A stretch of DNA of 64,000 bases from Candidatus Nanoarchaeia archaeon (GTDB lineage: Archaea > Nanobdellota > Nanobdellia > WJKC01): positions 6,568 through 70,567 of the forward strand of contig JBAZFG010000004.1 in NCBI GenBank assembly GCA_041653515.1. Direction: 5' to 3'. The notes below the pieces were generated by a model. That model saw nothing but the letters and a program-made list of their open reading frames with translations, had not been told where the DNA came from and did no database searches. Below are positions 6,927 through 57,262 of this stretch, piece after piece. Within the stretch, counting starts at the first letter, position 1. Every line of letters starts with the position of its first letter. The translations under genes were made by a program, and so were the position numbers.

Positions 6927-6947
6927 ACTCTTTTTATATGAAAAGAA

Positions 6948-15831: not shown

Positions 15832-15920
15832 TCAAAGAAAATGATTAGAAAAGAATATAAACTAATTAACAATAGTTAATTAATTATGATTTTACCACAA
15901 GAACTAGAAGTCTTCCCGAA

Positions 15921-15971
15921 CCGCAGGGGGGACACCCCCCTTCAGTTCATGGCATCTCCTGATTCCCCCCG
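15921..15971 (+). repeat. 51-bp GC-rich palindromic core element, copy 1 (CCGCAGGGGGGACACCCCCCTTCAGTTCATGGCATCTCCTGATTCCCCCCG)
   Basis: Identical to copies at 16022-16072 and 57921-57971. GGGGGG-ACA-CCCCCC hairpin plus a second CCCCCC tract. Confidence 0.9.
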
Positions 15972-16021
15972 AAAACGAGGCGACCAATGATTCTTCCACA
16001 AGAACTAGAAGTCTTCCCGAA

Positions 16022-16072
16022 CCGCAGGGGGGACACCCCCCTTCAGTTCATGGCATCTCCTGATTCCCCCCG
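16022..16072 (+). repeat. 51-bp GC-rich palindromic core element, copy 2
   Basis: Identical to 15921-15971. Confidence 0.9.
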
Positions 16073-16087
16073 AAAACGAGGCGACCA

Positions 16088-16441
16088 ATGATTCTTCCAC
16101 AAGAACTAGAAGTCTTCTATGTCATCCCCGCAATCAGGCGGGAACTAGCCCTATCCCTTAGCAAAAAAGGCTTTAAACAAAAAAAGATTGCCCAGATTTT
16201 CGGGGTCACTGAAGCCTGCATCAGCAATTACTTCAAATCAAAAAGAGCTAACGAAGTCAAATTCAACGTTAAAATAATCAAATTAATCAATGATTGTGCT
16301 GAAAAACTATCAAAAGGACAAACTTGTTTCATTAACGTTGTCCAAAAAGTTTGCAAAGAATTCAAGAATAGCGAGTGTTTATGCGCTCTTCACGAAAAAC
16401 TTGACGAGCACGTCTGTAAATGCAGGGGGTGCTTAGAATGA
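16088..16441 (+). CDS. HTH transcriptional regulator with C-terminal Cys cluster, upstream of iscSU (possible Fe-S responsive regulator)
   Basis: HTH-like KKIAQIFGVTEACISNYF. C-terminal CLCALHEKLDEHVCKCRGC. Stop overlaps the iscS ATG (ATGA). GAGG RBS 8 nt upstream of the ATG. Confidence 0.45.
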   Translation: MILPQELEVFYVIPAIRRELALSLSKKGFKQKKIAQIFGVTEACISNYFKSKRANEVKFNVKIIKLINDCAEKLSKGQTCFINVVQKVCKEFKNSECLCALHEKLDEHVCKCRGCLE

Positions 16442-27734: not shown

Positions 27735-27977
27735 TCACTTCTTCTTTTTGTAGGACATCCAACTCTTAGGGGCTTTGGCTACTTTATCAAAAAGCTCAAA
27801 AACCATTGTCTTAATAGCCATTGAAGTAACTGTTTTTTTGTTCTTAACTTTTTTAGTCACCATTGACGCAATAGTCTTAGCAATTGGTTCTGGCACGCCT
27901 GCACGCTTACAAGCCATAACAATCTTAGCTGATTTATAGCCCTCGAGTGATTTATCCCTCTTAACGACTTTAACCAT
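27735..27977 (-). CDS. Stand-alone ATP-cone domain protein (80 aa)
   Basis: MVKVVKRDKSLEGYKSAKIVMACKRAG... fits the ATP-cone N-terminal consensus (V-KRDG-x-E-F-x-KI-x-A-x-AG). Confidence 0.45.
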   Translation of the reverse strand: MVKVVKRDKSLEGYKSAKIVMACKRAGVPEPIAKTIASMVTKKVKNKKTVTSMAIKTMVFELFDKVAKAPKSWMSYKKKK

Positions 27978-28043
27978 GCGTTAATCTAACGTTTTATGTA
28001 TTTAAAAAAATTTATAATATGATTTTAGCTCAATCTGAATAAT

Positions 28044-28157
28044 GCTTCGGTAGCTCAGAGGTAGTAGCGCTGCTCCGGTACGCTCACTTCGTTTATGTAA
28101 TAACGAGAGTTGAGCCTAGAAAGGCAGAGGTCGTGGGTCCAATTCCCATCCGAAGCT
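28044..28157 (+). tRNA. tRNA with 41-nt canonical 37/38 intron. Anticodon probably GGT (Thr).
   Basis: Acceptor GCTTCGG/CCGAAGC. D-arm GCTC..TAGC. Anticodon stem CTGCT/GGCAG (28070-74 / 28123-27). Loop CCGGTA|A, exon1 ends at 28080, intron 28081-28121. T-arm GTGGG-TCCAATT-CCCAT. Discriminator T28157. C33 is unusual, so anticodon identity is tentative. Confidence 0.65.
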
Positions 28158-28169
28158 TTATAAATTTGT

Positions 28170-28619
28170 GTGCAAACAATCTTGATTATGGATAAATATT
28201 CATTTATCGAAGGACTCACTTATGCGGGAAATAAATTATTAGATTACTTCCAAGACAAGTATTTCACTGAAGCTAACCAATACTTACGCAAGGGCATGAA
28301 TGAGTTATTAAATAATATTAATATTTTTTGTGGGCTTGAAGAAAAATTATTATTAAGCAATAAAAAAGGACTTGAATTAATCAGTGATAGTATTAATTCT
28401 GTTAAGTTAATTCAAGGGCAATACATCAATAAAGGGCTTGATAATGAAAGTTATAACAAAGGGCTTGAACAAATATTCAACTTAATCAACAAGACTTTTA
28501 ATGAAGTTCCTTTTGGCATAAAATTATTGTTTGGTCCTGTACTCAACCCAGCAATTAAGGAATCAAAAAGAATAATTAAGAGCTTAAAGCGACCGCTTAC
28601 TAACCAAGTAAGCAATTAA
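28170..28619 (+). CDS. Hypothetical protein
   Basis: 149-aa ORF. Confidence 0.35.
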   Translation: MQTILIMDKYSFIEGLTYAGNKLLDYFQDKYFTEANQYLRKGMNELLNNINIFCGLEEKLLLSNKKGLELISDSINSVKLIQGQYINKGLDNESYNKGLEQIFNLINKTFNEVPFGIKLLFGPVLNPAIKESKRIIKSLKRPLTNQVSN

Positions 28620-29138
28620 TAATGAGCCAAACGTTAAGCCAATTGTTAACGGAAACATTAAGCTTAATGAGTAATCAGGCAAGTAAGGGTGAGTGCCAAG
28701 TAAGTAATCGGATAAATCACTCAATAACAAGAAGCTTAATACTATTAATAATGATTTTTTAGTGAACTTGAATTTAAGTGAGAGTAATAATTGTTCAAAA
28801 ATTAATAATAAGTGCGCGGCAAGGTTAATTAAATTAATAGCCAGATTATCTGGCGTTACATAAAAACCCCAATAACTAGTAATGACAATCCAAGTCCAAA
28901 GACCATACTTAATACCAGCGCTAACAGTTAGCAAGAACAAAGTGTTATTAGCTTTCTTATTCAATAATAATAATGACGCTGATAATACAAAGAGAAATGC
29001 TGCTAATGGACAGTCAGGCACAAAAACCCACAACAAAGGATTAGTAGCCATTAATTGAGAGCCATAAAAGAATAATGAACCATTAATAAAACCAAATAAG
29101 TTCACTACTACTAACAAATAAAGTAAGTCTTCAATCAT
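28584..29138 (-). CDS. Polytopic membrane protein, hypothetical
   Basis: 184 aa, 5-6 hydrophobic helices. Confidence 0.4.
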   Translation of the reverse strand: MIEDLLYLLVVVNLFGFINGSLFFYGSQLMATNPLLWVFVPDCPLAAFLFVLSASLLLLNKKANNTLFLLTVSAGIKYGLWTWIVITSYWGFYVTPDNLAINLINLAAHLLLIFEQLLLSLKFKFTKKSLLIVLSFLLLSDLSDYLLGTHPYLPDYSLSLMFPLTIGLTFGSLLIAYLVSKRSL

Positions 29139-29192
29139 TAAAAATGATTAATATGGATAATTTAATAAATAATTCCTTTATTTGTTTGAATA

Positions 29193-29735
29193 ATGAGAAT
29201 AATTGGTTTAATGGGTCGGATTGGCAGCGGCAAAGGAACGGTTGGCGAAGTATTAGTTAAGGAGTATGGTTTTAACAGCATCACAATGGGGGACTTAGCT
29301 CGTGAAGAAACTATTAATCGCGGGCTTGAACCAACACGCGAAGAGACCACTAGAATCAGTACTGAATGCCGAATGAATGACCCTGCTTACTTTATTAAAA
29401 AAGCGGTGAGCAAGATAAAAGAGTCAGGGCATGACAAATGGGTGATTGATGGCATTAGGACACCCTTAGATGTTAAGGAGTTCAAGCAATCATTTCCTGA
29501 AATTAAATTCATTAAAGTTGAAGTCTTACCTCAGATTCGCTATGAGCGAATGAAACTTAGGGGCAGAGCAGGTTTCCCTGACTCATTTAACAAATTCATA
29601 GAGCATGAAGCATTAGAGGAAGAGCGTTTCAACTTGAAAAGCACTCTTAGTAATGCTGATTACACTATTGAGAATAACGGGTCTTACGAGGAATTAGTTA
29701 ATAAGACTCGTGAATTAGTTAATAAATTATTTTAA
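29193..29735 (+). CDS. P-loop nucleotide kinase-like protein (adenylate/dephospho-CoA kinase-like fold)
   Basis: Walker A GLMGRIGSGKGTVG at the N-terminus. Confidence 0.5.
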   Translation: MRIIGLMGRIGSGKGTVGEVLVKEYGFNSITMGDLAREETINRGLEPTREETTRISTECRMNDPAYFIKKAVSKIKESGHDKWVIDGIRTPLDVKEFKQSFPEIKFIKVEVLPQIRYERMKLRGRAGFPDSFNKFIEHEALEEERFNLKSTLSNADYTIENNGSYEELVNKTRELVNKLF

Positions 29736-30128
29736 TTGCCTTAGCATGTTAGACTTGCCTTTATCCTTGAAAGCGCTGGATAAATCAATATAATACTTGC
29801 CTTCACTGATATTAATCACTATTGGTTCACCACGCATCAGAGCACTGATATCAATCTCAAACTTGCCTGGACCAAGTGTCTTAATAGTCTCTAAGTCAAG
29901 AATAACTGGTTTACCTGGTGATTTATCACCTAATAAATCCCTAACGTCCCGCTCCATCTCCTTAACATCAGTCTCTGATAAACTATTGCGGATTAACTCA
30001 GCGCTCGCTGATAACTCTTTATCCTTAATGTAAAAGAAGAACCGGCCACCGCAAGCTTCACAACCAGTTAATAATTGCTTTGAGCCATCCTCAATCCTCT
30101 TACCACAACGAACGCATTGATGGGGCAT
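29727..30128 (-). CDS. Zn-ribbon protein, conserved archaeal hypothetical
   Basis: CVRCGKR...CEACGG N-terminal C4 ribbon. Confidence 0.45.
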   Translation of the reverse strand: MPHQCVRCGKRIEDGSKQLLTGCEACGGRFFFYIKDKELSASAELIRNSLSETDVKEMERDVRDLLGDKSPGKPVILDLETIKTLGPGKFEIDISALMRGEPIVINISEGKYYIDLSSAFKDKGKSNMLRQLK

Positions 30129-30162
30129 GGAGTATTCTTAGACCTTGAACTTTAATAAGTTT

Positions 30163-30537
30163 TCACTTAATAAGCAGGCTAATCCGGTCAGGCTCTCTTT
30201 TTATCTGGCTAACTATTTTAGCTGGACCAATAACAGTGATGCCACTCTTGCCTCGAGTTAAGAAATTAACAATTCCCTCTTTAATGCGAGCCAACAAACT
30301 GTTATCACCCATTAATTCGCTACTTGACAGAGACGCTATTTCAACCCCAGAGAATGACTTATTAATGCTCTCCATTGTCCGCTGAATAAGAGCAGTCTCC
30401 TCTTTAGGGTCAAACCGCGCATTAAGCACTACTATTTTCTTGTCCTTGATTTTTGATAGGATTAACTCAACCCTATCCTCCATTGATGACTTCATCAATA
30501 ATTCAACTGGTATAAAATCTAGTGTTAAACCTTTCAT
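30163..30537 (-). CDS. Hypothetical protein (co-transcribed with GTPase)
   Basis: 124-aa ORF, abutting the downstream GTPase gene. Confidence 0.4.
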   Translation of the reverse strand: MKGLTLDFIPVELLMKSSMEDRVELILSKIKDKKIVVLNARFDPKEETALIQRTMESINKSFSGVEIASLSSSELMGDNSLLARIKEGIVNFLTRGKSGITVIGPAKIVSQIKREPDRISLLIK

Positions 30538-30539
30538 TA

Positions 30540-31172
30540 TTATTTTAACCTCCGACTAATATCAAATAACGCGTCATATAAATCATTAAAGCCCTCGCCG
30601 TTCCTAGCGCTCAAACCAATCACTTTATACTGAGGGAAAGCTGAGTTAACTCTCATTATCTTAGCAGTCTTCAAATCAGTCTTGTTAGCAACTATTATCA
30701 CAGGTATCTTCCTTGCTTCAAGGTTGCCAAGAATAGTAATATTAACTTGAGTATAAGGGTCCTTGGTTGAATCCATTACTGCTAACACAACGTCCATATC
30801 ATCAAGCCACTTAATTGCTTCAATAATGCCTTTAGTTGCTTCTCGGGCGCGCTTCTTGGCTTCGTTGCGTTTAATGCCATACTTAATGAATTCTTCAAAG
30901 TCAACTTTAGTGCTAATGCCAGGGGTATCAATTAAATTAATCTCAATTTTTCGACCGTTGCGCTCAATTGCCACTTTTTCTTTTGTCTGAACTTCTCTTG
31001 TTTCATGAGGTATCTTACTAGCAGTCCCTAATTCCTCACCAGTCCATTCTTTACTAATCCAATTAGCAATACTAGTCTTGCCTGCGTTGGGGGGTCCATA
31101 AACGCCTAGCCTAAAAACCTTCTTTTTCCAAAAGAAACGAGCCAAGAAGTTCTTGAAAAAATTAAACGCCAT
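30540..31172 (-). CDS. Small GTP-binding protein
   Basis: G1 GPPNAGKTS, G3 DTPG, G4 NKTD. Confidence 0.7.
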   Translation of the reverse strand: MAFNFFKNFLARFFWKKKVFRLGVYGPPNAGKTSIANWISKEWTGEELGTASKIPHETREVQTKEKVAIERNGRKIEINLIDTPGISTKVDFEEFIKYGIKRNEAKKRAREATKGIIEAIKWLDDMDVVLAVMDSTKDPYTQVNITILGNLEARKIPVIIVANKTDLKTAKIMRVNSAFPQYKVIGLSARNGEGFNDLYDALFDISRRLK

Positions 31173-31254
31173 AATAGTAATTGAGTGCTGTGTGCTTAAA
31201 TTTCTTGTGATATTAGAGAAATGTTTTTATTAAAGACACCCATTAACTTATTCT

Positions 31255-32685
31255 ATGCGAAAAACAATCCTATTAATAGCTTTTATTCTAATGGCTGGGG
31301 TAACAAGCGCGGTTAGTTATGAAGTCACTGGGGTTAAAACAAGAGTATACCCTGAGGAGAGTCTTATTTACAGGATAAACATAATTAACAATGACTCGGT
31401 TAGCAAAGAGGTTTACATTAACAAGTATATGGTGGAGAACACTTTTGGTATGGCTAGCAGTGTTAGGCCGTCAATTAACCTTGTTTTATCACCTAATAGT
31501 TCAACAATCATTAATGTCACAATTCCAGTTAGTAATAGTGTTACTAAAGGGACTTACAGCACGCCATTATTATTCTCTTACGGCAATACCACCACGGACA
31601 GGGTTTATCTTGAATCAGTTATTCTTAGTAAGGTATTAGAACCAATTGAATTGCAAAACATTACGGTCATTAACCCTGAGAGCATTATTCCAGTTCATGA
31701 GTTTAACACAACAGTCACGCTCTTATGCAACATTGAGTCAGTTTACCCGTTAGTTAAAATAACTGTTAGTGATGATAATGGAATTATTTATGAGTCTAGC
31801 AGTGTTCAGGAATTAAAAGAAGGTATTAATGTGTTCAGGCGCAGCGTTAAATTACCTGACCGAACAATGCCTGGCACTTACACTTTATTAGTTGAAGCTA
31901 GTGTTTCGGGCAGGGTTATTACTCAGGGGGTGGGTGATTTAGTAATTAATCCCTACACTTACATTAATTATTCAGCTGGGGTTTATGAGGACTTGTTTGG
32001 TAAACGAGTTAATCGCACTGCGGATAACCTTGGTACTGAAATAATTAACACTAGTGTTAATTACACTACTTCGTTATTAGAGCCATTATTAATTAATCGA
32101 ATATTATTATTAATTAAGAAAGATGGTAATATTATTAGTTCAACTACACCTGTTATTAGTGATTACTTAATTAATGAATTAGTCACGCTTGAATCAGGTG
32201 AGTCAGCTGAATTAATCATTGAGTTTGGTTATGGCTTATTAATTGCAATCCCATTTGTTATTATCTTAGTGATTATTGGTTGGTTCTTCGTGACTAAGCG
32301 AGTAATTGTTAAGAAAGAAATAATTGAATGCCATAAGGATGGTAATGAATTAACCGTTAAGGTTGGAGTTAGTGTTAAGAACGTTTCACTTAGCAGTATT
32401 AATAATGTTAAAATTATTGAGGATTTGCCTGTTTACGCTAAGAAAGCAGGCGCTTTTGGCAGTATTAAGGGTGATATTGACCGCAAGAAAGGTATTATTA
32501 CTTTCCTGCCAGGCCGGCTTGACCCTAAAGAAGAAGTATTATTATCTTATAAATTCAAGACTGATATTGAGTTAGTTGGCAGGGTCTCGTTGCCGCCAGC
32601 CACAGTTAAGTTCAGGGTTGATGATAAAGTAATGATTGTTAAGAGTAATACTACTGGCATTGAATTAATTAAAGGCGGAGAGTAA
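31255..32685 (+). CDS. Secreted surface protein with C-terminal transmembrane anchor, hypothetical
   Basis: Signal peptide MRKTILLIAFILMAGVTSA. Beta-rich body with sequons. Hydrophobic segment LLIAIPFVIILVIIGWFFV near aa 320. Confidence 0.5.
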   Translation: MRKTILLIAFILMAGVTSAVSYEVTGVKTRVYPEESLIYRINIINNDSVSKEVYINKYMVENTFGMASSVRPSINLVLSPNSSTIINVTIPVSNSVTKGTYSTPLLFSYGNTTTDRVYLESVILSKVLEPIELQNITVINPESIIPVHEFNTTVTLLCNIESVYPLVKITVSDDNGIIYESSSVQELKEGINVFRRSVKLPDRTMPGTYTLLVEASVSGRVITQGVGDLVINPYTYINYSAGVYEDLFGKRVNRTADNLGTEIINTSVNYTTSLLEPLLINRILLLIKKDGNIISSTTPVISDYLINELVTLESGESAELIIEFGYGLLIAIPFVIILVIIGWFFVTKRVIVKKEIIECHKDGNELTVKVGVSVKNVSLSSINNVKIIEDLPVYAKKAGAFGSIKGDIDRKKGIITFLPGRLDPKEEVLLSYKFKTDIELVGRVSLPPATVKFRVDDKVMIVKSNTTGIELIKGGE

Positions 32686-32838
32686 AAACAATCTATTCTT
32701 TCATCTTTACATCCAATCTTAGCTCAATAAACCCTTTTCTCGCTTCGCTCCAAAAGTATTTCATCCCAAAATTAATGCGCTTAGTAATCTTTTTAAAACA
32801 ATCTATTCTTTCATCTTTGTATCCCGTCTTAGCTCAAT
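32685..32838 (+). repeat. 44-bp direct repeat x2 (110 bp apart) duplicating the tRNA-Tyr upstream region and the first ~16 nt of the tRNA
   Basis: aaaacaatctattctttcatctttacatccaatcttagctcaat (32685-32728) versus aaaacaatctattctttcatctttgtatcccgtcttagctcaat (32795-32838). Confidence 0.8.
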
Positions 32839-32958
32839 GGTAGAGCGCATGGCTGTAGACCAATACTGGATTCAAAATATTCTCGTGTTGGGGAAAAGCG
32901 TGCATTGAGCAGGCATTCAGATACCATGAGGTTCCCGGTTCAAATCCGGGAGACGGGA
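32823..32958 (+). tRNA. tRNA-Tyr (GTA) with 64-nt intron at 37/38
   Basis: C1:G72 acceptor CCCGTCT/AGACGGG, which is the archaeal Tyr identity. D-arm GCTC-AATGGTA-GAGC. Anticodon stem CATGG/CCATG. Anticodon GTA at 32855-57. Intron 32859-32922. T-arm CCCGG-TTCAAAT-CCGGG. Discriminator A32958. No encoded CCA. Confidence 0.8.
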
Positions 32959-33050
32959 CATTCTTATTCCTCCTGGTTCAAACTCTCGAGTGAAACGAGA
33001 GAGTGCCTGAGCGAGCGATAGCGAGTGCAGAGCATCCGGGAGACGGGACA
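32944..33050 (+). repeat. tRNA-Tyr 3'-end duplication flanking a structured insert (element A)
   Basis: 17-bp direct repeat ATCCGGGAGACGGGACA at 32944-32960 and 33034-33050. Insert 32961-33033 = CATTCTTATTCCT + CCTGGTTCAAAC (T-arm mimic) + hairpin CTCTCG-AGTGAAA-CGAGAG + GTGCCTGAGCGAGCGATAGCGAGTGCAGAGCA. Confidence 0.8.
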
Positions 33051-33059
33051 CTTTTTTTT

Positions 33060-33902
33060 TTAAATTTTAATGATTAATCCGTCGTATGATATTAGGTTTT
33101 TTTGTTTTGAGTGCTTTTTTAATCCACAGTTGATTAAAGCTTGTCTAATCGTGTTGTCCCATTCTTTGTGGTTTTTTGGCGTCTTATAAGGCAGTGGGTT
33201 ATTGTTTGTTATTTCCTCATCACTAAAGTGCGTAAAGTACACATTTTTAGGAGTCCATCTTATTAGGTAATTAATTGCTTGTTGAAAACTCATGTGACCT
33301 GGTTTATTATTAATTGGTTCGTTAAACCAATTGGTTTCAATTATTAGTGAGTCAATTGGTTTTTCAATAATTATTGATTCATTTTCAATGCTATTAAAAT
33401 CAGATGTGTAAATTAATCGCTTGTTATCTTCATCAATTATGTAGCCAGTTGAGCCTGGCGCAAATGAGCCATGATTAGTCTTAAAAGGGGTTATTAGTAA
33501 GTTGTCAAGAGTTAATGATTCATTATATTTTATCGCTTGTTCTTTTATTATTGAGTCAAATAAGTATTTTAGGTCTTTTTTGTTTTTTAAGTAATTAATT
33601 GCATCAATATGAGCATATAATGGTACTTGCCAGTTTTTGTAAGCGCGTCTATAAATATTTAATTCATCAAGACCACCAGTATGGTCTTGGTGTGTGTGAG
33701 TAATTAATAGTGCGTCAATATTTTTTATAGAGTGCTTGATTCTTTGTTCTTTAAAGTCAGGTCCGCAGTCAATAAGCACTTTTTTGTTTGATTCAATTAG
33801 TAATGAAGTTCTAGTGCGATAATCCCTGTAATCAGTTATATTATTGATTAATTCATTTGGAAGACCCCAAGCGTTACCAGTGCCTAGAAAAGTGATTTTC
33901 AT
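33060..33902 (-). CDS. Metallo-beta-lactamase fold hydrolase (RNase Z/ElaC-like possible)
   Basis: ITFLGTGNAWG, LIDCGPD and LLITHTHQDHTGGL (HxHxDH). Start moved to the internal Met (MKITFLGTGN) to avoid overlap with the 33907-34422 ORF. Start coordinate is uncertain by about 1-2 nt. Confidence 0.6.
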   Translation of the reverse strand: MKITFLGTGNAWGLPNELINNITDYRDYRTRTSLLIESNKKVLIDCGPDFKEQRIKHSIKNIDALLITHTHQDHTGGLDELNIYRRAYKNWQVPLYAHIDAINYLKNKKDLKYLFDSIIKEQAIKYNESLTLDNLLITPFKTNHGSFAPGSTGYIIDEDNKRLIYTSDFNSIENESIIIEKPIDSLIIETNWFNEPINNKPGHMSFQQAINYLIRWTPKNVYFTHFSDEEITNNNPLPYKTPKNHKEWDNTIRQALINCGLKKHSKQKNLISYDGLIIKI

Positions 33903-33906
33903 TTTT

Positions 33907-34422
33907 TTAATCATCCCATAATTGATCGAAGTGTTCAAAATCAGGCAGTGATTCAAGCATGGCACTGACAGCTTTACTACTCCTTTGCCAATCAAGCTTT
34001 GCCTGTTTTCTCGAATCACTTTTAAGGTAGGGGTAATCATGCAATGAGTCTGGATTTTCAATCACTTGCATAATTCTGTCATAATAATCAACCCAGTAGT
34101 GGTTATGAAAACCATTAAGCGGAACAAGCTTGCCAGTCAGGCCAACGCGTTCAAGAAGAGGTAGTTCATTGTATAATTGTGTGTGATAAATATTCTTAAA
34201 ATTAAAATCAAGAACAACGCAGTAGGTCTTATACCGAGGATTATCAATAATGTCAATAATAAATCCGTTACGCACTGAACGTTCAAATTTATGTTCGTAA
34301 GTGTTAGTGTTATACTCCCAGTTTAGTATATCATATTTAAGATTTTTAGATTCAGATTTGCTGATTAAATGAAAAAATAAAGACTTGTTATTATCAATTG
34401 TGTTTTCAATTTCGTTTTTCAT
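33907..34422 (-). CDS. Hypothetical protein
   Basis: 171-aa ORF. Confidence 0.4.
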   Translation of the reverse strand: MKNEIENTIDNNKSLFFHLISKSESKNLKYDILNWEYNTNTYEHKFERSVRNGFIIDIIDNPRYKTYCVVLDFNFKNIYHTQLYNELPLLERVGLTGKLVPLNGFHNHYWVDYYDRIMQVIENPDSLHDYPYLKSDSRKQAKLDWQRSSKAVSAMLESLPDFEHFDQLWDD

Positions 34423-34518
34423 AAGTTTAATTTAAGCAGAAATATTATTTTAAATCTGTTATTTAAAAATAAATCAAAGAGTAATATTTTTAATATAAAA
34501 ATTACTATTTGATATAAT

Positions 34519-35481
34519 ATGTTATTATCTGTTAAGGATGAACGAATTATTAAGGGGCTTAATAAGAATAGCAGGCAGTCGTTTACTCAGCTTGGTAAAA
34601 AAGTAGGTCTGCCAAAAAACATTGTTAATTACCGTGTTAAAAAATTAGTTGATGAGGGGGTTATTACTCTTTTTTGCACAACTATTAATCGCGCAAAACT
34701 GGGTTACATGTATTGTAGGTTTTTTTTAAAGTTCATGCATTTTTCTGAAAAAATTGAGGAATCACTTGTTAAGTCAGTTTCAAAATTAAAAAATATACAC
34801 TTTGTTGCAAGACTTGATGGTTCATTTGATTTTTGTATAATATTTCTTGCTAAAACAATTAAAGAAATTGATGACATATATGATTCAATCACTTACTCGT
34901 TTGATAATAACTTAATAGATAAAGAATTAAGTATTGCATCGAGACTTTATTATTTGCCTTATAATTATTTGTATAACAAAAGCGAGCCTGTTTATAGCGA
35001 AGTATTAAATGTTGATAAGACAATTAATTTAGATGAGAATGATTATAAGTTAATTAACATTATTAAAGAAAATTCTAGAAAACCAATGATTGAATTAATT
35101 AATGAACTAAAATTAAGTCCGCAAGTTATTAGGGCTCATATGAAGAAACTAATTAGTGAAGGTATTATAATTGGTTATAATATTAGGGTTAATAATAAGA
35201 AGTTTAATTTAAATAATTTTCACATTTTTCTTAACTTAACAAATATTAATGAGTCTAAGTATCAGGAGATAATTAATTTTTTATTTAGTAAAAAACCAGT
35301 AACACACATAATTAAAGGTTTAGGTAAGTGGGATTTAGAATTTGAAGCAGTTCTTAAATCACATTTTGAGTTACATGAGTTAATTAAGGAATTAAAAGAT
35401 AAGTTTCCAACAAATATTTTAAAGCATGAGTCAGCAATAATTTATGAAGTTTATAAAATTAACACTGTTAAATACTCTTAA
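34519..35481 (+). CDS. Tandem Lrp/AsnC-type HTH transcriptional regulator
   Basis: Two HTH_AsnC-like segments: NSRQSFTQLGKKVGLPKNIVNYRVKKLVDEGVI and NSRKPMIELINELKLSPQVIRAHMKKLISEGII. Confidence 0.55.
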   Translation: MLLSVKDERIIKGLNKNSRQSFTQLGKKVGLPKNIVNYRVKKLVDEGVITLFCTTINRAKLGYMYCRFFLKFMHFSEKIEESLVKSVSKLKNIHFVARLDGSFDFCIIFLAKTIKEIDDIYDSITYSFDNNLIDKELSIASRLYYLPYNYLYNKSEPVYSEVLNVDKTINLDENDYKLINIIKENSRKPMIELINELKLSPQVIRAHMKKLISEGIIIGYNIRVNNKKFNLNNFHIFLNLTNINESKYQEIINFLFSKKPVTHIIKGLGKWDLEFEAVLKSHFELHELIKELKDKFPTNILKHESAIIYEVYKINTVKYS

Positions 35482-35782
35482 ATAAGTGCCTATAGGAATC
35501 TAATTCTTTTATGTGGTGCTTTCCTTGCACACCTAAATAAGTGTAATTGTCATTACCCTCTTCATCAGTGTAGGCATAAATTACGTAAGGAAGTGGTTCT
35601 TCTTCCAGTTTTAATAATTCTTTTAGTGTTTTATTAAACTCTGTTGAGTCATTTTCAGATTCTTTTAATTTTTTTAATAGTTGTTCTAGTGATTTTTCAA
35701 ATTTATTTTTTTCTTTTAAAATAAGTTCACAAGCTTTGTCATATTCACTGTAAATTGAGTATTTTGTGTCAGGCATAATCAA
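35468..35782 (-). CDS. Hypothetical protein
   Basis: 104-aa ORF. Confidence 0.3.
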   Translation of the reverse strand: MIMPDTKYSIYSEYDKACELILKEKNKFEKSLEQLLKKLKESENDSTEFNKTLKELLKLEEEPLPYVIYAYTDEEGNDNYTYLGVQGKHHIKELDSYRHLFKSI

Positions 35783-35973
35783 TTAAAGTATTTATGGTAA
35801 TATGAATTTTGTTTTATTATTTTAATCCAAAAAGAATTATTTAAGATTGTTTAGTTATCTTTTGATATAAATTGTCTTTTGTAATACAATCTAGATTAAA
35901 AAATATTTGATTAATAAACAACAATCACATCACTATTTATATTCATTCTAATTAAACCGAAGATAATTTTTAT

Positions 35974-36070
35974 GTCAGGGAGATGGGACATTCTTATTTC
36001 TCCTGGTTCAAACCCACGAACGAAGTGAAGTGGGTGCCTGAACGAAGTGCAATGTGTCCAGTAGATAGGA
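35974..36070 (+). repeat. Degenerate third member (element B) of the tRNA-downstream structured element family. No tRNA present.
   Basis: GTCAGGGAGATGGGACA (a tRNA 3'-end-like remnant) + CATTCTTATTTCTCCTGGTTCAAAC + hairpin CCCAC-GAACGAAGTGAA-GTGGG + GTGCCTGAACGAAG. Covaries with element A. Confidence 0.7.
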
Positions 36071-36126
36071 TAATCTTTTTTTGAATAATCAGTTTTATAA
36101 GCCACATCACTACTCTAAATTTATTT

Positions 36127-37371
36127 GTGAACAAGTTTTATTCGTTAATCTTTATAGTATTACTAGCTGGTTGTATCAAAGTTAATACACAAAGTAATGC
36201 CTGCACGCCTAACTGGCAGTGCACTGATTGGATTAACTGCCTACAAGGCAATCAGAATCGGACTTGCACTGATATTAATGATTGTAATAATAACATGAGC
36301 AAGCCTGATTTAACTAAAAAATGTGATGAACAATCTTGTAATTCTTACAAGCCAAACGTGGTTTATAACATGGCTTTCGTTTTGTTCAGCAGTCCTGACA
36401 GCAGTCCTGCATCAAGTGAAGAATTAAGCAGATTAAATGAATCAATAATCCTTGCTCAAGATAAGTGGAATGAAATAACTCCTGGGCTTAGCTTAAGAAT
36501 AAAATTGTACTTGATTAATGTTTCACGGTTCGCAACAACAGAGCCAATTCGTGCTGTAAATACTTTTTATGATTATTATCCTCTGGAAAACCAGAATTAT
36601 GACGCAATAGCTTTTATGGATACTTGGACTAACAATGATTATTACTGTAGCAGTAATAATTTCCTTAAGGATGATGTGGACACTCTTTTCGGCATTAATA
36701 ATTGCAGTTTAAGACAGGTTATTTTCCTAACAAGTATACATAACCCTTGCAGTGCTATTAATAATTTAGATGCTTATCAAATTGCTACTATTATAATTCA
36801 TGAAACAACTCATCACTGGGCAGTGCAATTACCAGTTGTTTTCTTAGATGGTAACTCAAGTGACACTTCATCACCAGCAAGCCTCTTAGATTCTTACAAA
36901 GTTCACTGGAGTGATTATGTTAACTCCTCGTTTGACCCGTTGGGTGGTAATTTATTTGAATTAAATAATAGCACTTTTACTGTGGTTGCTCACTCCTTGC
37001 GCTTAATCTGGCCTAATGAAAATGATTCTAAATACACTTTTGATAACATGAAGAGACTTGACTTAGAGTTATTCATGATGGGGTTAAAGACTAGAGAGGA
37101 AGTTAGTAATGTAAGATTAATGACTAATTGCAATAATTATATATGTTCATCATACCATGATTTCAGCGTGGATGATATCCTGCCTATAAATATGGCAACA
37201 ATAACCCCTAGCCTTCCGGGAGACACTGATGGGGATGGAATTTATACGTGGGCTGAGCTTGAAGGAACACTTGGTTACAAGTCTGACCCCTTTAATAAGG
37301 ACACTAACCAAAATGGGATTGATGACTTAAGTGAAATACTCAATGGACAAAACCCATTGTTATGTCAATAA
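36127..37371 (+). CDS. Lipoprotein, putative secreted zinc metalloprotease (HExxH) with N-terminal 6-Cys module and C-terminal Ca-binding-like D-rich repeats
   Basis: Lipobox LLAGC. CTPNWQCTDWINC...RTCTDINDCNNN. IIIHETTHHW (HExxH). DTDGDGIYTW..DTNQNGIDD. Confidence 0.5.
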   Translation: MNKFYSLIFIVLLAGCIKVNTQSNACTPNWQCTDWINCLQGNQNRTCTDINDCNNNMSKPDLTKKCDEQSCNSYKPNVVYNMAFVLFSSPDSSPASSEELSRLNESIILAQDKWNEITPGLSLRIKLYLINVSRFATTEPIRAVNTFYDYYPLENQNYDAIAFMDTWTNNDYYCSSNNFLKDDVDTLFGINNCSLRQVIFLTSIHNPCSAINNLDAYQIATIIIHETTHHWAVQLPVVFLDGNSSDTSSPASLLDSYKVHWSDYVNSSFDPLGGNLFELNNSTFTVVAHSLRLIWPNENDSKYTFDNMKRLDLELFMMGLKTREEVSNVRLMTNCNNYICSSYHDFSVDDILPINMATITPSLPGDTDGDGIYTWAELEGTLGYKSDPFNKDTNQNGIDDLSEILNGQNPLLCQ

Positions 37372-37524
37372 ATAAAACATTGTATTCTAGCATGAAATAT
37401 AATATCATTTCTTATTATTTTGATTCAAACCTAAAGAAATGAGGGTAAATTTGGTTAAAACATGAGTCTTATGACGTGAGTGACCCTACCTTTTTATAAC
37501 TATTAAGTGTGTTTCATTCTTTCT

Positions 37525-38391
37525 ATGAAAACCACTGACTTGATTGATAAGCTTGATAATGACTTCAAATTAAGCTCTTTAAGTGATGATTGGAGTGATT
37601 GGCCTGAATTAAAAAGTAATTCTTATGTTACTGATAAATTCAAGAAGTGTTACATGGGATTAATAGCTGATAATGCTTCTGAAATTGAAAGTATTTATAC
37701 TGCTGTGTTCCCAAGCAAGCAAGTCTTTAGTGAGTTAAAAAACGTTAATAATGCTTTATTAATCACTCATCACCCAATGAAATGGGATATAAGAGTTAAA
37801 CCCGCTTTCACCCCGATTAGTAATAAAGAATTTAGCTTGCTTAAGAAGAATAAGATATCTTTTTACAATCTGCACGTGCCACTTGATGCTAATGGAACTT
37901 ACTCCACCAGTGTTAATCTGGCCCGAGCGTTAGGGGCTGGTTTGCTTAAAAAAGAATTCTTTGATTATCATGGAGTTAAAGTCGGTGTTGTCAGCAAGAT
38001 TAATGAAAAAACGGTTCAGGAATTAAAAGATAAGTTCAGCGCATTATTAGGTCATGAGATTGGTTTGTATAATTATGGTAATCAAGTGATTACTAAAGGG
38101 CTTGTTGGTTTTGTTGGTGGTGGGGGCCTTAATGTTGAGTCATTAAATGACTTAAATAAAATAGGAGTTAACACGTTAGTGACTGGTGTCACTGCGGTTA
38201 ATAGTTATTCAAAACCAATGCATGAATTAGCCAATAAGTATAAGATTAATATTTTAGGCGGTAGCCATTACTCAACTGAGAAGTTCGCGTGCGTTAAGCT
38301 ATGTGATTACTTCAAAAAGAGGAATTTAACTGCCCAATTCATAGAGGAAAATATTAAAAACAATCTTGATTGGATAAAAGCGGATTTATAA
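37525..38391 (+). CDS. NIF3-family metal-binding protein
   Basis: HHPMKW and GGSHYSTEKFA match the NIF3 HHP and GHYxTE blocks. Start set at ATG 37525 (MKTTDLIDKL). Confidence 0.6.
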   Translation: MKTTDLIDKLDNDFKLSSLSDDWSDWPELKSNSYVTDKFKKCYMGLIADNASEIESIYTAVFPSKQVFSELKNVNNALLITHHPMKWDIRVKPAFTPISNKEFSLLKKNKISFYNLHVPLDANGTYSTSVNLARALGAGLLKKEFFDYHGVKVGVVSKINEKTVQELKDKFSALLGHEIGLYNYGNQVITKGLVGFVGGGGLNVESLNDLNKIGVNTLVTGVTAVNSYSKPMHELANKYKINILGGSHYSTEKFACVKLCDYFKKRNLTAQFIEENIKNNLDWIKADL

Positions 38392-38444
38392 AAAAAATTG
38401 CTTTTCAAAATCATTATAAAACCATTCTTCCTTAGGATTAATCA

Positions 38445-39701
38445 GTGTTTAAGGGTTATTTATTAGCAGGGACTTTATTATTAATAGTATTAATCGCTGG
38501 TTGTGCTACTAACACGCCAGCAGTGACTAATTGTAATGATTATTGTTTATTAGAATCACATGAATCTTGCGATGGTGAATGGAGTATTAGTGGTGAGTAC
38601 CCTAATTGCACTTGTGGTTGGGTTTGTGATGATACTTGCACGCCTGACTGGAGTTGCACTGAATGGAATGATTGTAACGTAACTAATTTACAGACAAAGC
38701 ATTGTATTGACTTAAATGAATGCGGGATTAACACAAACAAACCAGCTGAGTCGCAAGCTTGCACTTTCATTAATTTTTGTGATTCAATCAGCAGCGCTAA
38801 CCTGAAAGCTAATTGCAACGCGTTCTTGTACAATGATGTTAGTAAGTGCCCAACTGAATCAACCACTTTTTATGAGAACTGTGCTTATGATTTGGCAAAG
38901 ATTACTTTTAATATCACTGTTTGTGATTCAATCAACACTACTTACACTAGGAATGTTTGTAAAGCAATAGTTAAGAATAACTTGGCTTATTGTAATATTC
39001 TTATACCAATAAACAGGACTCAATGTTATGAAGATGTTTACGCGTTCCTTAATTATCGGGCTAGTTTTGAGAATAATTCTTATTATTGTGGTTTAATAAT
39101 TAACACAACTCTTTACCCTAATTGCGCTAACCAACCAACAAGGAATACTTACTTGAATCATTATAGTAATTACAGTATTTGTGAGCGCTACTTCTTTGAT
39201 TATAACAGCACTGATTATCAGAGCATCTTTGCTTGTTATTCTTATCATGTTAAAACAGATAACACTAAAACTGTTTGTGAAAGCATAAAGAACATTGTTA
39301 ATATGACTGACTTATTCTATGATGAGTGCATAGCACTAGCGGATAATAATATTACTTATTGTTATGATTTTAATGGAACCCTTAGGGATCGTTGCTTGGC
39401 TAATTTTGCTTATTTACGAAACGACACTGATATTTGTCGCGACGCGTCTAATCGTGATAATTGTAATCAAATTGTTTGCGGTGAATTTGGCTACATTAAT
39501 TTCTGCGATATGTTAACTACTACTGTCACGCGCAACGTTGAGGTTTATAATTTAGCTATTGCTTGCTTATCAAATAACTGGGCTTCATGTAACATGGGTT
39601 ATTGTGATTTATTAACCGACCAAGTGTTAAAGGATTCATGTATTTACTATATTTATCGTTATGAGAAAATGCTTGGTTATAATTACAGAAATTATATTTG
39701 A
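38445..39701 (+). CDS. Cysteine-rich lipoprotein, paralogous N-terminal module to the 36127 gene product
   Basis: Lipobox LIAGC. Shared module CTPDWSCTEWNDCNVTNLQTKHCIDLNECGINTNKP. More than 50 Cys overall. Confidence 0.5.
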   Translation: MFKGYLLAGTLLLIVLIAGCATNTPAVTNCNDYCLLESHESCDGEWSISGEYPNCTCGWVCDDTCTPDWSCTEWNDCNVTNLQTKHCIDLNECGINTNKPAESQACTFINFCDSISSANLKANCNAFLYNDVSKCPTESTTFYENCAYDLAKITFNITVCDSINTTYTRNVCKAIVKNNLAYCNILIPINRTQCYEDVYAFLNYRASFENNSYYCGLIINTTLYPNCANQPTRNTYLNHYSNYSICERYFFDYNSTDYQSIFACYSYHVKTDNTKTVCESIKNIVNMTDLFYDECIALADNNITYCYDFNGTLRDRCLANFAYLRNDTDICRDASNRDNCNQIVCGEFGYINFCDMLTTTVTRNVEVYNLAIACLSNNWASCNMGYCDLLTDQVLKDSCIYYIYRYEKMLGYNYRNYI

Positions 39702-39744
39702 ATAGTAATCCTTAAAAATAGGTCTTTGGTTTCATTTTACAATT

Positions 39745-39817
39745 GCTTCGGTAGTCTAGTGGTCTAGGATCTCGGACTGTCGATCCGGGGACCCGGGTTC
39801 AAATCCCGGCCGGAGCG
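39745..39817 (+). tRNA. tRNA-Asp (GTC), no intron
   Basis: Acceptor GCTTCGG/CCGGAGC. D-arm GTCT-AGTGGTCTA-GGAT. Anticodon stem TCGGA/TCCGG with loop CTGTCGA. T-arm CCGGG-TTCAAAT-CCCGG. Discriminator G. 73 nt. Confidence 0.85.
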
Positions 39818-39880
39818 GTTAAAACAAGCGACGGCAGGGGCCTGGAATTTATTCCAGTGCACCGGCCGAAGCGATTATCT

Positions 39881-40342
39881 TTATAATTTATACTTACTTA
39901 ATATTGAATTAACCTTTAAGTCAAGCTTAGAAAAACGCTCACTATCAGGTTTGCATTTCAAGGCATAAGTTAAGTAATGATTTATCAAGCTTAAAGCATT
40001 AGTTAATTCCTCTTCTTTACCAGAATAATCAGGGGCTTTAATTGCTAATAAATTAATTAATTCTTCAGCAAAACTTATGCAAACATCATGAAAAACGTTT
40101 CTAAACACTGCTTCAAATATTGGTTTATCATCTAATTCTTTAATGACTTGTTGTTTCAATGATTTATTAACAGTGGTCTCATAAAAGGATGATTGAACAA
40201 TTATCTCATAAAGGTAAAGAATATTTCTATTCGGATTAAGCGCTTTCTCATCATCAATGATTAATAATGCTTCATCAAGATTACAATAATAAACTTGTTT
40301 AGCAATCTTTTGAATAAGGTCCATAAAGAAGAAAACTATCAT
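39881..40342 (-). CDS. Hypothetical protein
   Basis: 153-aa ORF. Confidence 0.35.
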   Translation of the reverse strand: MIVFFFMDLIQKIAKQVYYCNLDEALLIIDDEKALNPNRNILYLYEIIVQSSFYETTVNKSLKQQVIKELDDKPIFEAVFRNVFHDVCISFAEELINLLAIKAPDYSGKEEELTNALSLINHYLTYALKCKPDSERFSKLDLKVNSILSKYKL

Positions 40343-40446
40343 TAAAAGCTTATTAACTTATTGACAAAACTTATAAAACAAACAATATTTTTCTAAATGA
40401 TAATAATGAGTCTGGCTTCTCGGAGAAGACGCATTATACAAATAGT

Positions 40447-40586
40447 GGGCCCGTAACTCAGTCTGGTTAGAGTACTTGGCTTTTACGTCGCTACGCTCCT
40501 CCGTCCTTACGGACGGACGCTCGCTTGCTAAAACAAGCGGTGACGAGGATACCAAGGAGTCGCGGGTTCGAATCCCGTCGGGCTCA
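40447..40586 (+). tRNA. tRNA-Lys (TTT) with 65-nt GC-rich intron at 37/38
   Basis: Acceptor GGGCCCG/CGGGCTC (G2:U71). D-arm ACTC..GAGT. Anticodon stem CTTGG/CCAAG. Loop CTTTTA|A. Intron 40486-40550. T-arm GCGGG-TTCGAAT-CCCGT. Discriminator A40586. Confidence 0.75.
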
Positions 40587-40747
40587 CATCCTCAAGGAGG
40601 GGGACTCCCCCTCCTTTAGAGATAATTCTCCCCCGATAAGTTGCGCCAAAGGCGCTAACCAATAAGTGGGTTCAAACCAACGGAGCTCTGCGAAGTTAGT
40701 GCCTGAACGAGCGAATAACAAAGTTCAGAGCATCCCGTCGGGCTCAC
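40572..40747 (+). repeat. tRNA-Lys 3'-end duplication flanking a 144-bp structured insert (element C)
   Basis: 16-bp direct repeat ATCCCGTCGGGCTCAC at 40572-40587 and 40732-40747. Insert includes the perfect 23-nt palindrome AAGGAGGGGGA-C-TCCCCCTCCTT (40594-40616), the T-arm mimic GTGGGTTCAAACC, and the conserved arm GTGCCTGAACGAGCGA...CAGAGCA. Confidence 0.8.
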
Positions 40748-40932
40748 TCAACCCCTTTCTTTTACAAAGAAAGTGGTTTGATCCCCAAAGAAACTATTTG
40801 ATTCGAGCTAACGCTCGAAAGTTATTTACTAAAGAATTGCGCCAGAAGCGCTAATAAACTGGCTCAAACCCAAGGGGTGATGGCAAATAATAATAGTAAA
40901 ATTTATAATGATATCAAACGAATAAAAACATC

Positions 40933-41325
40933 ATGAAAATTGATTTTGATAATTATAGTAAAATAATTCCAGGTAGTATACCAGCACTCTACCAATCAGG
41001 CAGTGATATTATTTGCTATAAATTACTTAATGGCGAAAAAGTTAACAATAACCCTGAATTTTTTATTGAAAGATTATCAATGATAACAGGCATCCAAAAA
41101 AGCGAATTATTCAATGAACGCACTACTCTGGTCAGTAAGTCTGGGAAAATATTTGATAACTGGTGTGCACAAGAACACAAAGAAATAATACCTGCATGGA
41201 TTACTAAAACTATTGACAACAAAATTAAAGGATTGTTTATAGACTCTGATTATATTTGGTCACCCAACCAATCTAATAATAAAAGGAACGAATTATTCCA
41301 GCAATTCTTAGATATATTCTATTAA
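40933..41325 (+). CDS. Hypothetical protein
   Basis: 130-aa ORF. Confidence 0.35.
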   Translation: MKIDFDNYSKIIPGSIPALYQSGSDIICYKLLNGEKVNNNPEFFIERLSMITGIQKSELFNERTTLVSKSGKIFDNWCAQEHKEIIPAWITKTIDNKIKGLFIDSDYIWSPNQSNNKRNELFQQFLDIFY

Positions 41326-51621: not shown

Positions 51622-51714
51622 AATTGATTTTTTCTAATAATTAATATTATTCTTTGGGGTGAAGCCCTTTCTTTTTAAGAAAGGGTTTCTTTGAGACTGA
51701 ACGACAAGCTGCTG
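51589..51714 (+). repeat. rps7 3'-end duplication: 22-nt direct repeat flanking a hairpin-bearing insert
   Basis: GAGACTGAACGACAAGCTGCTG at 51589-51610 (the live end, ..GCCAGCAGGTAA) and at 51693-51714 (ghost, ..GTATCAAGATAA = ETERQAAVSR*). Between them lies the hairpin GAAGCCCTTTCTT-TTTAAG-AAAGGGTTTCTT (51661-51692). Confidence 0.8.
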
Positions 51715-51736
51715 TATCAAGATAAAAAAAGATTAA

Positions 51737-57122: not shown

Positions 57123-57250
57123 AATATTTAATATTTAGTTCTTTTGGTCAAGGTTTTCTTGCTAAGAAAAGCTTGTTGGAAATGGAAATTACTGAGTAAA
57201 ATATTTAGTTCTTTTGGTCAAGGTTTTCTTGCTAAGAAAAGCTTGTTGGA
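57101..57250 (+). repeat. Tandem duplication (~73-77 bp x2) of the rps10 3' end (last 6 codons + stop) and its 3'UTR hairpin
   Basis: ggaaatggaaattactgagtaaaatattta[atattta]gttcttttggtcaaggttttcttgctaagaaaagcttgttgga at 57101-57180, and again without the 7-bp extra at 57178-57250. Contains the stem GGTTTTCTT-GCT-AAGAAAAGC. Confidence 0.85.
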
Positions 57251-57262
57251 ATAAAATAATTC

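Follow-up and report, generated by a model that had tools for sequence, protein, structure and literature searches.

We analysed a 64,000-nt stretch of the genome of a Candidatus Nanoarchaeia archaeon (GCA_041653515.1, contig JBAZFG010000004.1, positions 6,568–70,567 of the forward strand; hereafter the window), in which the genes for tRNA-Tyr(GTA) and tRNA-Lys(TTT) are each followed by a second copy of their own 3′ end. Inside each displaced copy, at T-loop position 59/60, lies a small structured block that we call module E; the DNA between the two copies, together with the repeat, makes up a unit. Our verdict is that the module is a non-autonomous, intron-like insertion. We consider it somewhat probable that the units are footprints of insertions in the 3′ part of tRNA genes, with their junction at 59/60, and that E is an intron-like block in a tRNA-like arm.

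Displaced tRNA 3′ ends and the module within them

The tRNA-Tyr gene (32823–32958, plus strand; 58.7 bits in Rfam) is also predicted by ARAGORN in intron mode and is overlooked by it without that mode. It carries a 64–67-nt anticodon-loop intron and an unbroken T-loop, TTCAAAT. The sequence from T-loop position 59 to 2 nt beyond the discriminator forms a 17-nt repeat, ATCCGGGAGACGGGACA, present in direct orientation at 32944–32960 and again, 17/17 identical, at 33034–33050. Between the two copies, all on the plus strand, are a T-rich spacer (TTCTTATTCCT, 32961–32971) similar to the native tRNA-Tyr 3′ flank of the relative L012, the 5′ strand of a pseudo T-stem, CCTGG, joined to T-loop positions 54–59, TTCAAA (together CCTGGTTCAAA, 32972–32982), and copy A of module E (32983–33033). 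The CCTGG strand can pair with CCGGG of the distal repeat. An oligo-T run (CTTTTTTTTTTA, 33051–33062) stands after the distal repeat only, where it may act as an archaeal terminator.

The arrangement recurs at tRNA-Lys (40447–40586, plus strand; found by Rfam and by ARAGORN in intron mode), which has an anticodon-loop intron and the T-loop TTCGAAT. Here a 16-nt repeat, ATCCCGTCGGGCTCAC, lies in direct orientation at 40572–40587 and 40732–40747, 16/16 identical. The proximal copy is followed on the same strand by a 78-nt spacer (40588–40665) with two GC-rich hairpins, AAGGAGGGGGACTCCCCCTCCTT and GCGCCAAAGGCGC, whose last bases (ACCAATAA) are similar to the start of the tRNA-Lys 3′ exon. The pseudo T-stem strand GTGGG, TTCAAA and copy B of module E then occupy 40666–40731, and the distal repeat leads into native flank. 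Further downstream, at 40837–40885 (plus strand), the GCGCC hairpin occurs a second time and is followed by the decayed 5′ portion of an E unit (TGGCTCAAACCCAAGG).

An earlier note on this DNA had described the repeats, the hairpins and the tRNA-Lys counterpart, all of which we recovered at the same positions. The insertion that it gave as 53 nt is a block of 51 nt at tRNA-Tyr, counted between TTCAAA and the repeat, and of 55 nt at tRNA-Lys. It had also seen a T-arm mimic ahead of the block. The 5-nt stem strand before TTCAAA does track each tRNA (CCCGG/CCTGG and GCGGG/GTGGG in the window, GGGGG/AGGGG in the related genome L005), but GGTTCAAAC is part of the element and no copy of the resident T-loop, as the TTCGAAT of tRNA-Lys makes plain. 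The degenerate third copy that the note had reported is likewise present, at 35974–36072, with 3/17 and 6/17 mismatches in its repeats and a truncated second hairpin.

These copies form one family. Copies A, B and C are mutually similar beyond all 200 shuffles, and a covariance model built from four copies (A, B, C and a fourth, D, which follows tRNA-Lys in L005) scores A at 86.7, B at 81.3, C at 67.5 and D at 71.4 bits, with the rest of the window at or below 17 bits, the level of a plain T-arm. The motif GTGCCTGARCGAGCGA has four matches within three mismatches in place of the 0.25 expected; the two inexact ones lie in protein-coding sequence. The earlier note's proposal of a structured non-coding family at different tRNA 3′-end repeats is thus borne out. 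In terms of coding potential, E has stops in almost every frame, and no frame is kept between copies. Rfam searches of 27900–41000 at the gathering score and at E-values up to 1 gave tRNA hits only and no family for E. A check by eye for ribozyme or C/D-box motifs in E found nothing that fits, and no convincing terminal inverted repeats surround the units or the tRNAs.

Module E consists of two adjacent hairpins, P2 and P3. P2 starts at T-loop position 59 and is hypervariable in sequence and length, except for its conserved closing A-U and C-G pairs. Specifically, in copy A 32982–32987 pairs with 32999–33004 to form P2, and 33005–33012 pairs with 33025–33033, with one bulged A, to form P3. The sequence of P3 (GCCUGAAC...GUUCAG-A-GC) is conserved and does not covary; the covariation put forward in the earlier note stands for three P2 pairs that change on both sides, to which the informative covariation is confined. 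Under the proposed structure 91% of cells are paired, versus 32–43% when the partners are slid by 1–3 columns. RNAalifold alone recovers P2 and additionally proposes pairing of GGUUCA of the T-loop mimic with UGAAC of P3; the fold z-scores of single units are modest, at −1.6 to −2.2. Taken over four sequences, these patterns are suggestive of selection on the structure of E and fall short of proof. We also considered P2 as a decayed copy of a tRNA 3′ end, a similarity that is not significant for copies A–D (p > 0.27) and is significant only for a variant, U, in the relative L028.

At tRNA-Tyr the units form a nested array. Outward from the tRNA come the fresh unit A, a 2.9-kb low-GC island (33051–35973; GC 0.277 versus 0.360 in the window) with repeat copies at both ends, the old unit C, an ancestral oligo-T run and a gene for a Cys-rich protein. 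The right edge of the island meets a decayed repeat (GTCAGGGAGATGGGACA, 35974–35990, plus strand) whose left boundary is again T-loop position 59. Old unit C (35991–36055, plus strand) has a spacer, CCTGGTTCAAA, and a module with P2 CCCAC/GTGGG and a truncated P3; it ends in the most decayed repeat, GTCCAGTAGATAGGATA, followed by an oligo-T run (36056–36085, plus strand), which adjoins the Cys-rich gene. Repeat mismatches to tRNA-Tyr thus grow with distance, from 0 to 3 to 6 of 17, as expected from successive insertions at the tRNA-proximal site of a tandem array. Units A and C are nearly identical in spacer and flanks and wholly different in their P2 stems.

The island encodes an MBL-fold hydrolase, an uncharacterised 171-aa open reading frame (ORF), a double Lrp/AsnC regulator and a 104-aa coiled-coil ORF. 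The hydrolase gene (33060–34061, minus strand) ends 10 nt from the distal tRNA-Tyr repeat, and its product is weakly similar to RNase Z, cyclic-nucleotide phosphodiesterases and the anti-Pycsar protein Apyc1, all far under family cut-offs. Beyond the array, the Cys-rich secreted proteins encoded at 36127–37371 and 38445–39701 are paralogs and match no family.

Related loci, retrieved via proteins neighbouring the tRNA loci of the window and designated by L-numbers, provide empty sites for both units. The closest relative at the Tyr locus is L033, in which oligo-T and a Cys-rich gene homologous to the ORF at 38445–39701 come immediately after tRNA-Tyr and the 2.9-kb island is absent. Since the Cys-rich homolog of L033, the counterpart of the gene adjoined by the outermost repeat of unit C, sits directly after tRNA-Tyr, one of the two Cys-rich copies and a NIF3-like gene (37507–38391) may also belong to the inserted region. 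In L029 the tRNA-Lys 3′ end directly abuts an 89-nt conserved flank that in the window follows the distal repeat, which marks positions 40588–40747 as extra sequence in the window. These empty sites in L033 and L029 identify the units as insertions, in agreement with the earlier note. In addition, tRNA-Tyr and tRNA-Asp are adjacent in L009 and L013 and lie 6.7 kb apart in the window.

Copies of tRNA 3′ ends are found within 450 nt downstream of 5 of the 28 tRNAs examined in 10 genomic stretches, and in none of the mirror-image controls; all five tRNAs belong to the window, L005 or L028. In L005 (a JGI sequence) the repeat after tRNA-Lys measures 40 nt, comprising the tRNA end and 25 nt of flank, and an additional partial 3′ end is present. 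At the Lys locus the closest relative is L028 (an NCBI sequence), where a degraded E variant stands in tandem after tRNA-Lys.

The L028 loci with duplicated ends, tRNA-Lys and tRNA-Asp, lie at 1880–2125 and 2700–2845 on the minus strand. Its tRNA-Lys is intron-less and is followed by two tandem units of ~82 nt, each made of the tRNA 3′ end and a 67-nt E variant without most of P3, and then by a third 3′ end. Its tRNA-Asp has a second 3′ end as well, preceded by an AT-rich hairpin that differs from E and is embedded in a pseudo T-loop.

The 59/60 junction and the boundaries of E

The junction at which E is inserted is T-loop position 59/60, an exact placement with intron-like boundaries that the earlier note had overlooked. 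True T-loop introns at 59/60 occur in tRNA-Tyr of L009 and L010. Introns at this position with relaxed motifs are cut by a DPANN endonuclease, for example in ARMAN-2 tRNA-Cys (PMC3239211), and 59/60 is also the junction of the permuted tRNA-Tyr and tRNA-iMet genes of Thermofilum pendens (PMC3218864). The tRNA-Tyr genes of L009 (11476–11656) and L010 (11955–12177), which both Rfam at the gathering score and ARAGORN overlooked, have three introns each (D-arm, 37/38 and 59/60), and the T-loop intron of L010 measures 78 nt and contains two GC-rich hairpins.

When bulge-helix-bulge (BHB) geometry is fitted to working introns of the lineage, these have a central helix of 4 bp or of 3 bp plus a mismatch beside the first bulge; the anticodon introns of tRNA-Tyr in the window and in L012 and L013 are of the latter form. 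In E copies A, B and D the central helix UUCA/AGAG makes three of four pairs and is flanked by the bulges AA|C and CA|U, a boundary quality equal to that of those working tRNA-Tyr introns. The decayed copy C has lost the BHB-like boundary. E is without a single inner helix and has two separate hairpins instead. Judged on these sequence features, E is compatible with being spliceable. An uninterrupted T-arm and 3′ end precede E in every case; E therefore sits outside the copy that the cell needs, and splicing is not required.

E shows no homology to the T-loop introns of L009 and L010, as the covariance model scores L010 at 17.9 bits, again the level of a plain T-arm. With regard to split or permuted tRNA genes, no complementary partner sequence was found, and complete tRNA-Tyr and tRNA-Lys genes exist. 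At 16 of 19 positions the start of unit B (ACCAATAAGTGGGTTCAAA, 40657–40676) agrees with the first bases of the tRNA-Tyr anticodon intron (ACCAATACTGGATTCAAA, 32859–32877). Homology of E to anticodon introns is unproven, this being the single match, with p ~0.006 before correction for six tests.

Duplicated gene ends across the window and the origin of the units

Short-range direct repeats are enriched ~45-fold in the window (17 exact segments versus 0.37 in shuffles), and loci with a repeat-insert-repeat layout also occur at the ends of protein genes, with repeat lengths of 15–44 nt. The inserts between duplicated ends fall into recurring families, and several small hairpin-rich element families other than E are present in the window.

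At 51586–51727 the last 36 nt of the ORF 50938–51621, stop codon included, are repeated 104 nt downstream, so that FETERQAAASR* recurs as FETERQAAVSR* after the hairpin CCCTTTCTTTTTAAGAAAGGG; this is a regenerated end with a displaced fragment at a protein gene. At 57884–58069 (minus strand) the last ~30 nt of Kae1/TsaD, with the stop codon, are present three times, split by unrelated inserts of 32 and 57 nt, and the outermost copy adjoins the start of a Bud32-like kinase gene that overlaps Kae1 in L013. A tandem repeat of 101 nt (15886–16117; 2.3 copies, 98% identical) combines a 30-nt ORF start with a GC-rich hairpin element of 71 nt, CCGCAGGGGGGACACCCCCCTTCAGTTCATGGCATCTCCTGATTCCCCCC. The same element forms one of the Kae1 inserts (57915–57970), and a similar G5/C5 hairpin is seen in the tRNA-Lys spacer (40594–40616). 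At 57100–57251 lies a perfect tandem duplication with a unit of ~70–77 nt, made of the 3′ end of a small ORF and an element containing TTTTGGTCAAGGTTTT, a motif that also opens the other Kae1 insert (58025–58040, minus strand). A perfect 15-nt direct repeat, AAACTTTGGTTTCCC, occurs at 6946–6960 and 7006–7020, 60 nt apart, between convergent genes. Independent Logan contigs from this sample (SRR18595300) break off exactly within two window repeats (2034 and 58040), which indicates that such repeats fragment assemblies.

In the reading that we favour, that of insertion footprints at tRNA 3′ ends, each event would have left an intact tRNA followed by inserted DNA, in the order spacer, pseudo T-stem plus TTCAAA, module E. 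The last 16–17 nt of the tRNA (40 nt in L005) would then recur and abut the old downstream flank with its oligo-T. Such a regenerated tRNA with a displaced 3′ fragment is the layout expected from site-specific integration at the T-arm, with joining possibly performed by a recombinase acting in trans. As placed, E would be transcribed with the tRNA in its 3′ trailer, and a function for the host would be unnecessary; if the crossover instead fell upstream of E, the host tRNA would acquire E as a 59/60 intron that can be spliced. The repeated use of the 59/60 boundary, including at the edge of the 2.9-kb island, favours site-specific joining.

Several results weigh against this reading. We detected no recombinase within the 64 kb and 12 kb of flanks, none in the island and its neighbouring ORFs with Pfam, PHROGs and NCBIfam, and no integrase, transposase or reverse transcriptase among the 30 ORFs scanned, a search to which the earlier note had also pointed; with no recombinase encoded nearby, the units would be non-autonomous or remnants. 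An intact element carrying E was not found. Three scans of viral contigs for E gave nothing or chance matches in phage coding DNA, and blastn of the unit A insert against phage records and of the unit B insert against plasmid records returned no match. When contigs of genomes and metagenomes were scanned for the pattern GGTTCAAACN{12,32}GTGCCTGARCGA, the only hits were chance ones in GC-rich bacteria; the gap range of 12–32 in the pattern excludes the L005 variant (10 nt), so that the absence of E elsewhere is weakly tested. Furthermore, free circles are implausible at the small insert sizes seen (73, 144 and ~95 nt), which calls for repeated deletion of whole elements with similar endpoints or for another route, and the occurrence of one E next to two different tRNA cores is unusual for a single integrase. 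Finally, the same layout at protein-gene ends indicates a process that is not specific to tRNAs. The 12 kb of extra sequence flanking the window on the source contig holds no more tRNAs and no E copies.

The only integrase seen in a relative is that of L010, where it lies beside tRNA-Asp. We examined it as a model element and rejected it, as there is no repeat of the tRNA end and no E at that site; tblastn with this integrase gave no match.

The window-wide duplications and the absent recombinase favour a different account, which we regard as unlikely, namely that gene ends are duplicated locally by template switching or slippage at hairpins, with no integrase, and that E is a separate small mobile insert directed to T-loops. 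Here a tandem duplication would cover ~37 nt at the end of the tRNA gene with its flank, from the T-arm through the acceptor strand to a few bases beyond, and E would land in T-loop DNA (GGTTCAAA|TCC) and survive in the spare copy only. The resemblance of the unit A spacer to the native flank of L012 and the pseudo T-stem that tracks each tRNA allow unit A to be read as a head-to-tail duplicate of ~37 nt plus E, and the short-range repeat enrichment, the true tandem duplications at 15886–16117 and 57100–57251, the duplicated protein-gene ends at 51586–51727 and 57884–58069 and the membership of the inserts in recurring families are all in keeping with such a process. The account nevertheless requires that one and the same pair of steps took place separately at three or four loci, needs more events for the 78-nt tRNA-Lys spacer and the extra partial 3′ end in L005, and leaves unexplained a 2.9-kb island bounded by the same 17-nt repeat at position 59. 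It also suffers from the lack of a route for E, since we know of no mechanism by which an insert would target T-loop DNA.

That the unit is retained for an RNA function, with tRNA and unit co-transcribed to the distal oligo-T, seems to us quite improbable. The trailer could be released as a structured small RNA with a T-loop, two hairpins and a 3′ tail identical to that of the tRNA; or the endonuclease could excise the RNA from the first T-loop to the distal repeat, replacing the RNase Z cut and yielding the same mature tRNA. The second option can draw on a BHB-like geometry that holds for this long excision too, and thermodynamic folding of the full transcripts pairs the distal 3′ end, not the proximal one, with the 5′ acceptor strand. 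The conservation of GGTTCAAAC, GTGCCTGARCGA and CAGAGCATCC beside a hypervariable, always-paired P2 at two tRNAs and in two genomes, the perfect distal repeats where the unit looks young and the oligo-T after the distal copy only are in line with a retained transcript, and the modelled pairing of GGUUCA in the T-loop mimic with UGAAC in P3 might constitute a switch. Against retention, the close relatives L033, L029 and L030 do without the unit, copy C is decayed, the L028 variant is degraded, and the single-unit folds are modest and match no Rfam family.

Very improbable, in our estimate, is that E is an ancestral 59/60 intron of tRNA-Tyr and tRNA-Lys whose 3′ exon was displaced when an incoming element or gene conversion brought in an intron-less 3′ end upstream of it. 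The 59/60 introns in tRNA-Tyr of L009 and L010, the intron-like boundaries of E, the native flank that adjoins the distal copy and the identity of the pseudo T-stem CCTGG with the real T-stem of the L005 tRNA-Tyr would suit such an origin. The crossover must then fall upstream of E, where the copies are least alike; identity is perfect downstream of E and beyond the tRNA (25 nt in L005). Moreover, two tRNA-Tyr E units with different P2 imply repeated gain and loss, none of the examined relatives has a T-loop intron in tRNA-Lys, and E is not homologous to the L009 and L010 introns. Chance similarity or an assembly artefact of a strain mixture is scarcely credible. The source is a metagenome-assembled genome (MAG), and Logan contigs break exactly at two other repeats; yet the same architecture appears in contigs from other samples and sources (L005 and L028), and the statistics are far past chance. 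In addition, repeats of 16–17 nt are shorter than usual assembler word lengths, although the settings of this assembly may differ.

Relation to known elements and implications

Islands integrated in tRNA genes (tDNA) and their attachment-site remnants were reportedly described by Reiter in 1989 and by Williams in 2002. Typical of tDNA islands are attachment sites in the T-stem region, fragments of the tDNA 3′ end and tandem arrays (Islander, PMC4383910). The loci described here resemble such islands in having an intact tRNA and a displaced 3′ fragment in direct orientation, identity running from the T-arm to past the 3′ end, a tandem array at one tRNA, empty sites in relatives and low-GC cargo between repeats. 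They differ in that no integrase was found, most inserts measure 73–144 nt, and the displaced T-loop is split by a conserved structured block that adjoins two tRNA cores. With respect to island size and foreign composition, the 33051–35973 segment has 2.9 kb at GC 0.277, and the E units themselves have 73 and 144 nt. Given this attachment-type footprint, with repeats bracketing a low-GC island in a nested array, the earlier note went too far in preferring its candidates to a decayed attachment site, and its notion of an element that captures tRNA 3′ ends is weakened by the protein-gene ends in the window with the same repeat-insert-repeat layout. A miniature integrative element, which it also named, comes close to the reading we prefer, that of insertion footprints; a SINE-like one does not, as an A-tail is missing and the ORFs scanned include no reverse transcriptase.

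The idea of protective introns is said to come from Randau and Soll. In a published model, an intron-bearing attachment site (attP) disrupts tRNA genes (Sugahara et al. 2012, PMC3293823). By analogy, E fits this model of an attachment site that carries an intron: in both there is a tRNA-like attachment sequence with an intron-like insert, and integration would either give the tRNA an intron or leave it in the fragment. In the model of Sugahara et al. the intron enters a working tRNA at 24/25 and the recombinase gene lies within the insert, whereas E lies in a spare fragment at 59/60, has no recombinase and occurs at two tRNAs and in two genomes. With archaeal BHB introns and permuted junctions E shares the exact 59/60 site and resembles them in a UUCA central helix, 3-nt bulges and a relaxed motif, and it departs from BHB introns in its position outside the needed copy and in the two hairpins that replace the inner helix.

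Cis-mobilizable elements (CIMEs) are known from integrative and conjugative elements (ICEs) of streptococci; they are bacterial and kilobases long, and their mobilization in trans has been shown. Like CIMEs, the E units are short DNA flanked by attachment-type repeats without an integrase and may sit in tandem at one tRNA; unlike them, they are archaeal and far below kilobase size, and their mobilization in trans is hypothetical. Miniature inverted-repeat transposable elements are similarly tens of bases long, hairpin-rich, multi-copy, non-coding and located at gene boundaries, but E has no terminal inverted repeats, and its duplications are long and variable (16, 17 and 40 nt; 15–44 nt overall) where those elements have a short target duplication of constant length. 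From short interspersed nuclear elements (SINEs) E is set apart by having a 3′ T-arm and acceptor mimic only and no A-tail; the search for a reverse transcriptase, which covered the scanned ORFs, found none.

The remaining features belong to the tRNA loci and their surroundings. The window is AT-rich core chromosome (GC 0.36) with genes for RNA polymerase subunits, translation factors, Kae1 and OapABC. Rfam identifies four tRNA genes, three of them with introns. Besides tRNA-Tyr and tRNA-Lys they are a tRNA-Asp without intron (39745–39817) and an intron-bearing tRNA (28044–28157) with a non-canonical intron placement; the ARAGORN label of the latter, Val(aac), is implausible, and synteny with L007 and L013 suggests tRNA-Thr(GGT). 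Upstream of tRNA-Tyr by 110 nt lies a decayed 44-nt duplicate of the tRNA-Tyr leader and the first 18 nt of the tRNA (32685–32728, plus strand), 91% identical to 32795–32838. An equivalent 5′ fragment of tRNA-Tyr is present in L007 (11533–11550), and none was found in L033, where the intervening sequence is conserved. The 89-nt non-coding stretch downstream of tRNA-Lys (40748–40836), kept in L029 (~7359–7270, minus strand), has two hairpins and a T-arm-like sequence, GGTTTGATCCCC, and no Rfam match; it is conserved between genomes whose neighbouring protein is just 59% identical.

Remnants of tRNA ends, T-arm attachment sites, tandem arrays and 59/60 introns are already known. What is new is a conserved, structured, intron-like module at 59/60 of a displaced fragment, which recurs in two genomes and at two tRNAs, is polymorphic among relatives as an insertion, and occurs in a genome where mini-inserts between duplicated gene ends are numerous. 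A bolder proposal, which we rate as rather improbable, is that the E units are live intermediates in the birth of a T-loop intron or an undescribed class of tiny mobile inserts. As intermediates, they would produce a pre-tRNA with two interchangeable 3′ ends, maturing by RNase Z or by endonuclease excision, and if the proximal end were then lost, the outcome would be a fixed 59/60 intron or the seed of a permuted or split gene. As a mobile class, they would be hairpin inserts of 30–100 nt that enter gene termini with long, variable target duplications (15–44 nt), through a mechanism so far undescribed in archaea.

This MAG is assigned to the Nanoarchaeota, the phylum in which split tRNA genes were discovered. 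The interruption, splitting and permutation of archaeal tRNA genes, in which 59/60 is a recurrent position, have so far been argued mostly from end states. The loci described here offer a graded natural series of empty sites, fresh units, a decayed unit, a nested cargo island and the true 59/60 introns of relatives. By linking a mobile-DNA footprint to an intron-like block at an intron position, they make the seeding of tRNA introns by mobile elements testable. More broadly, hairpin inserts between duplicated ends of protein and tRNA genes may indicate that reduced DPANN genomes undergo a mutational or mobile process that has gone unrecognized.

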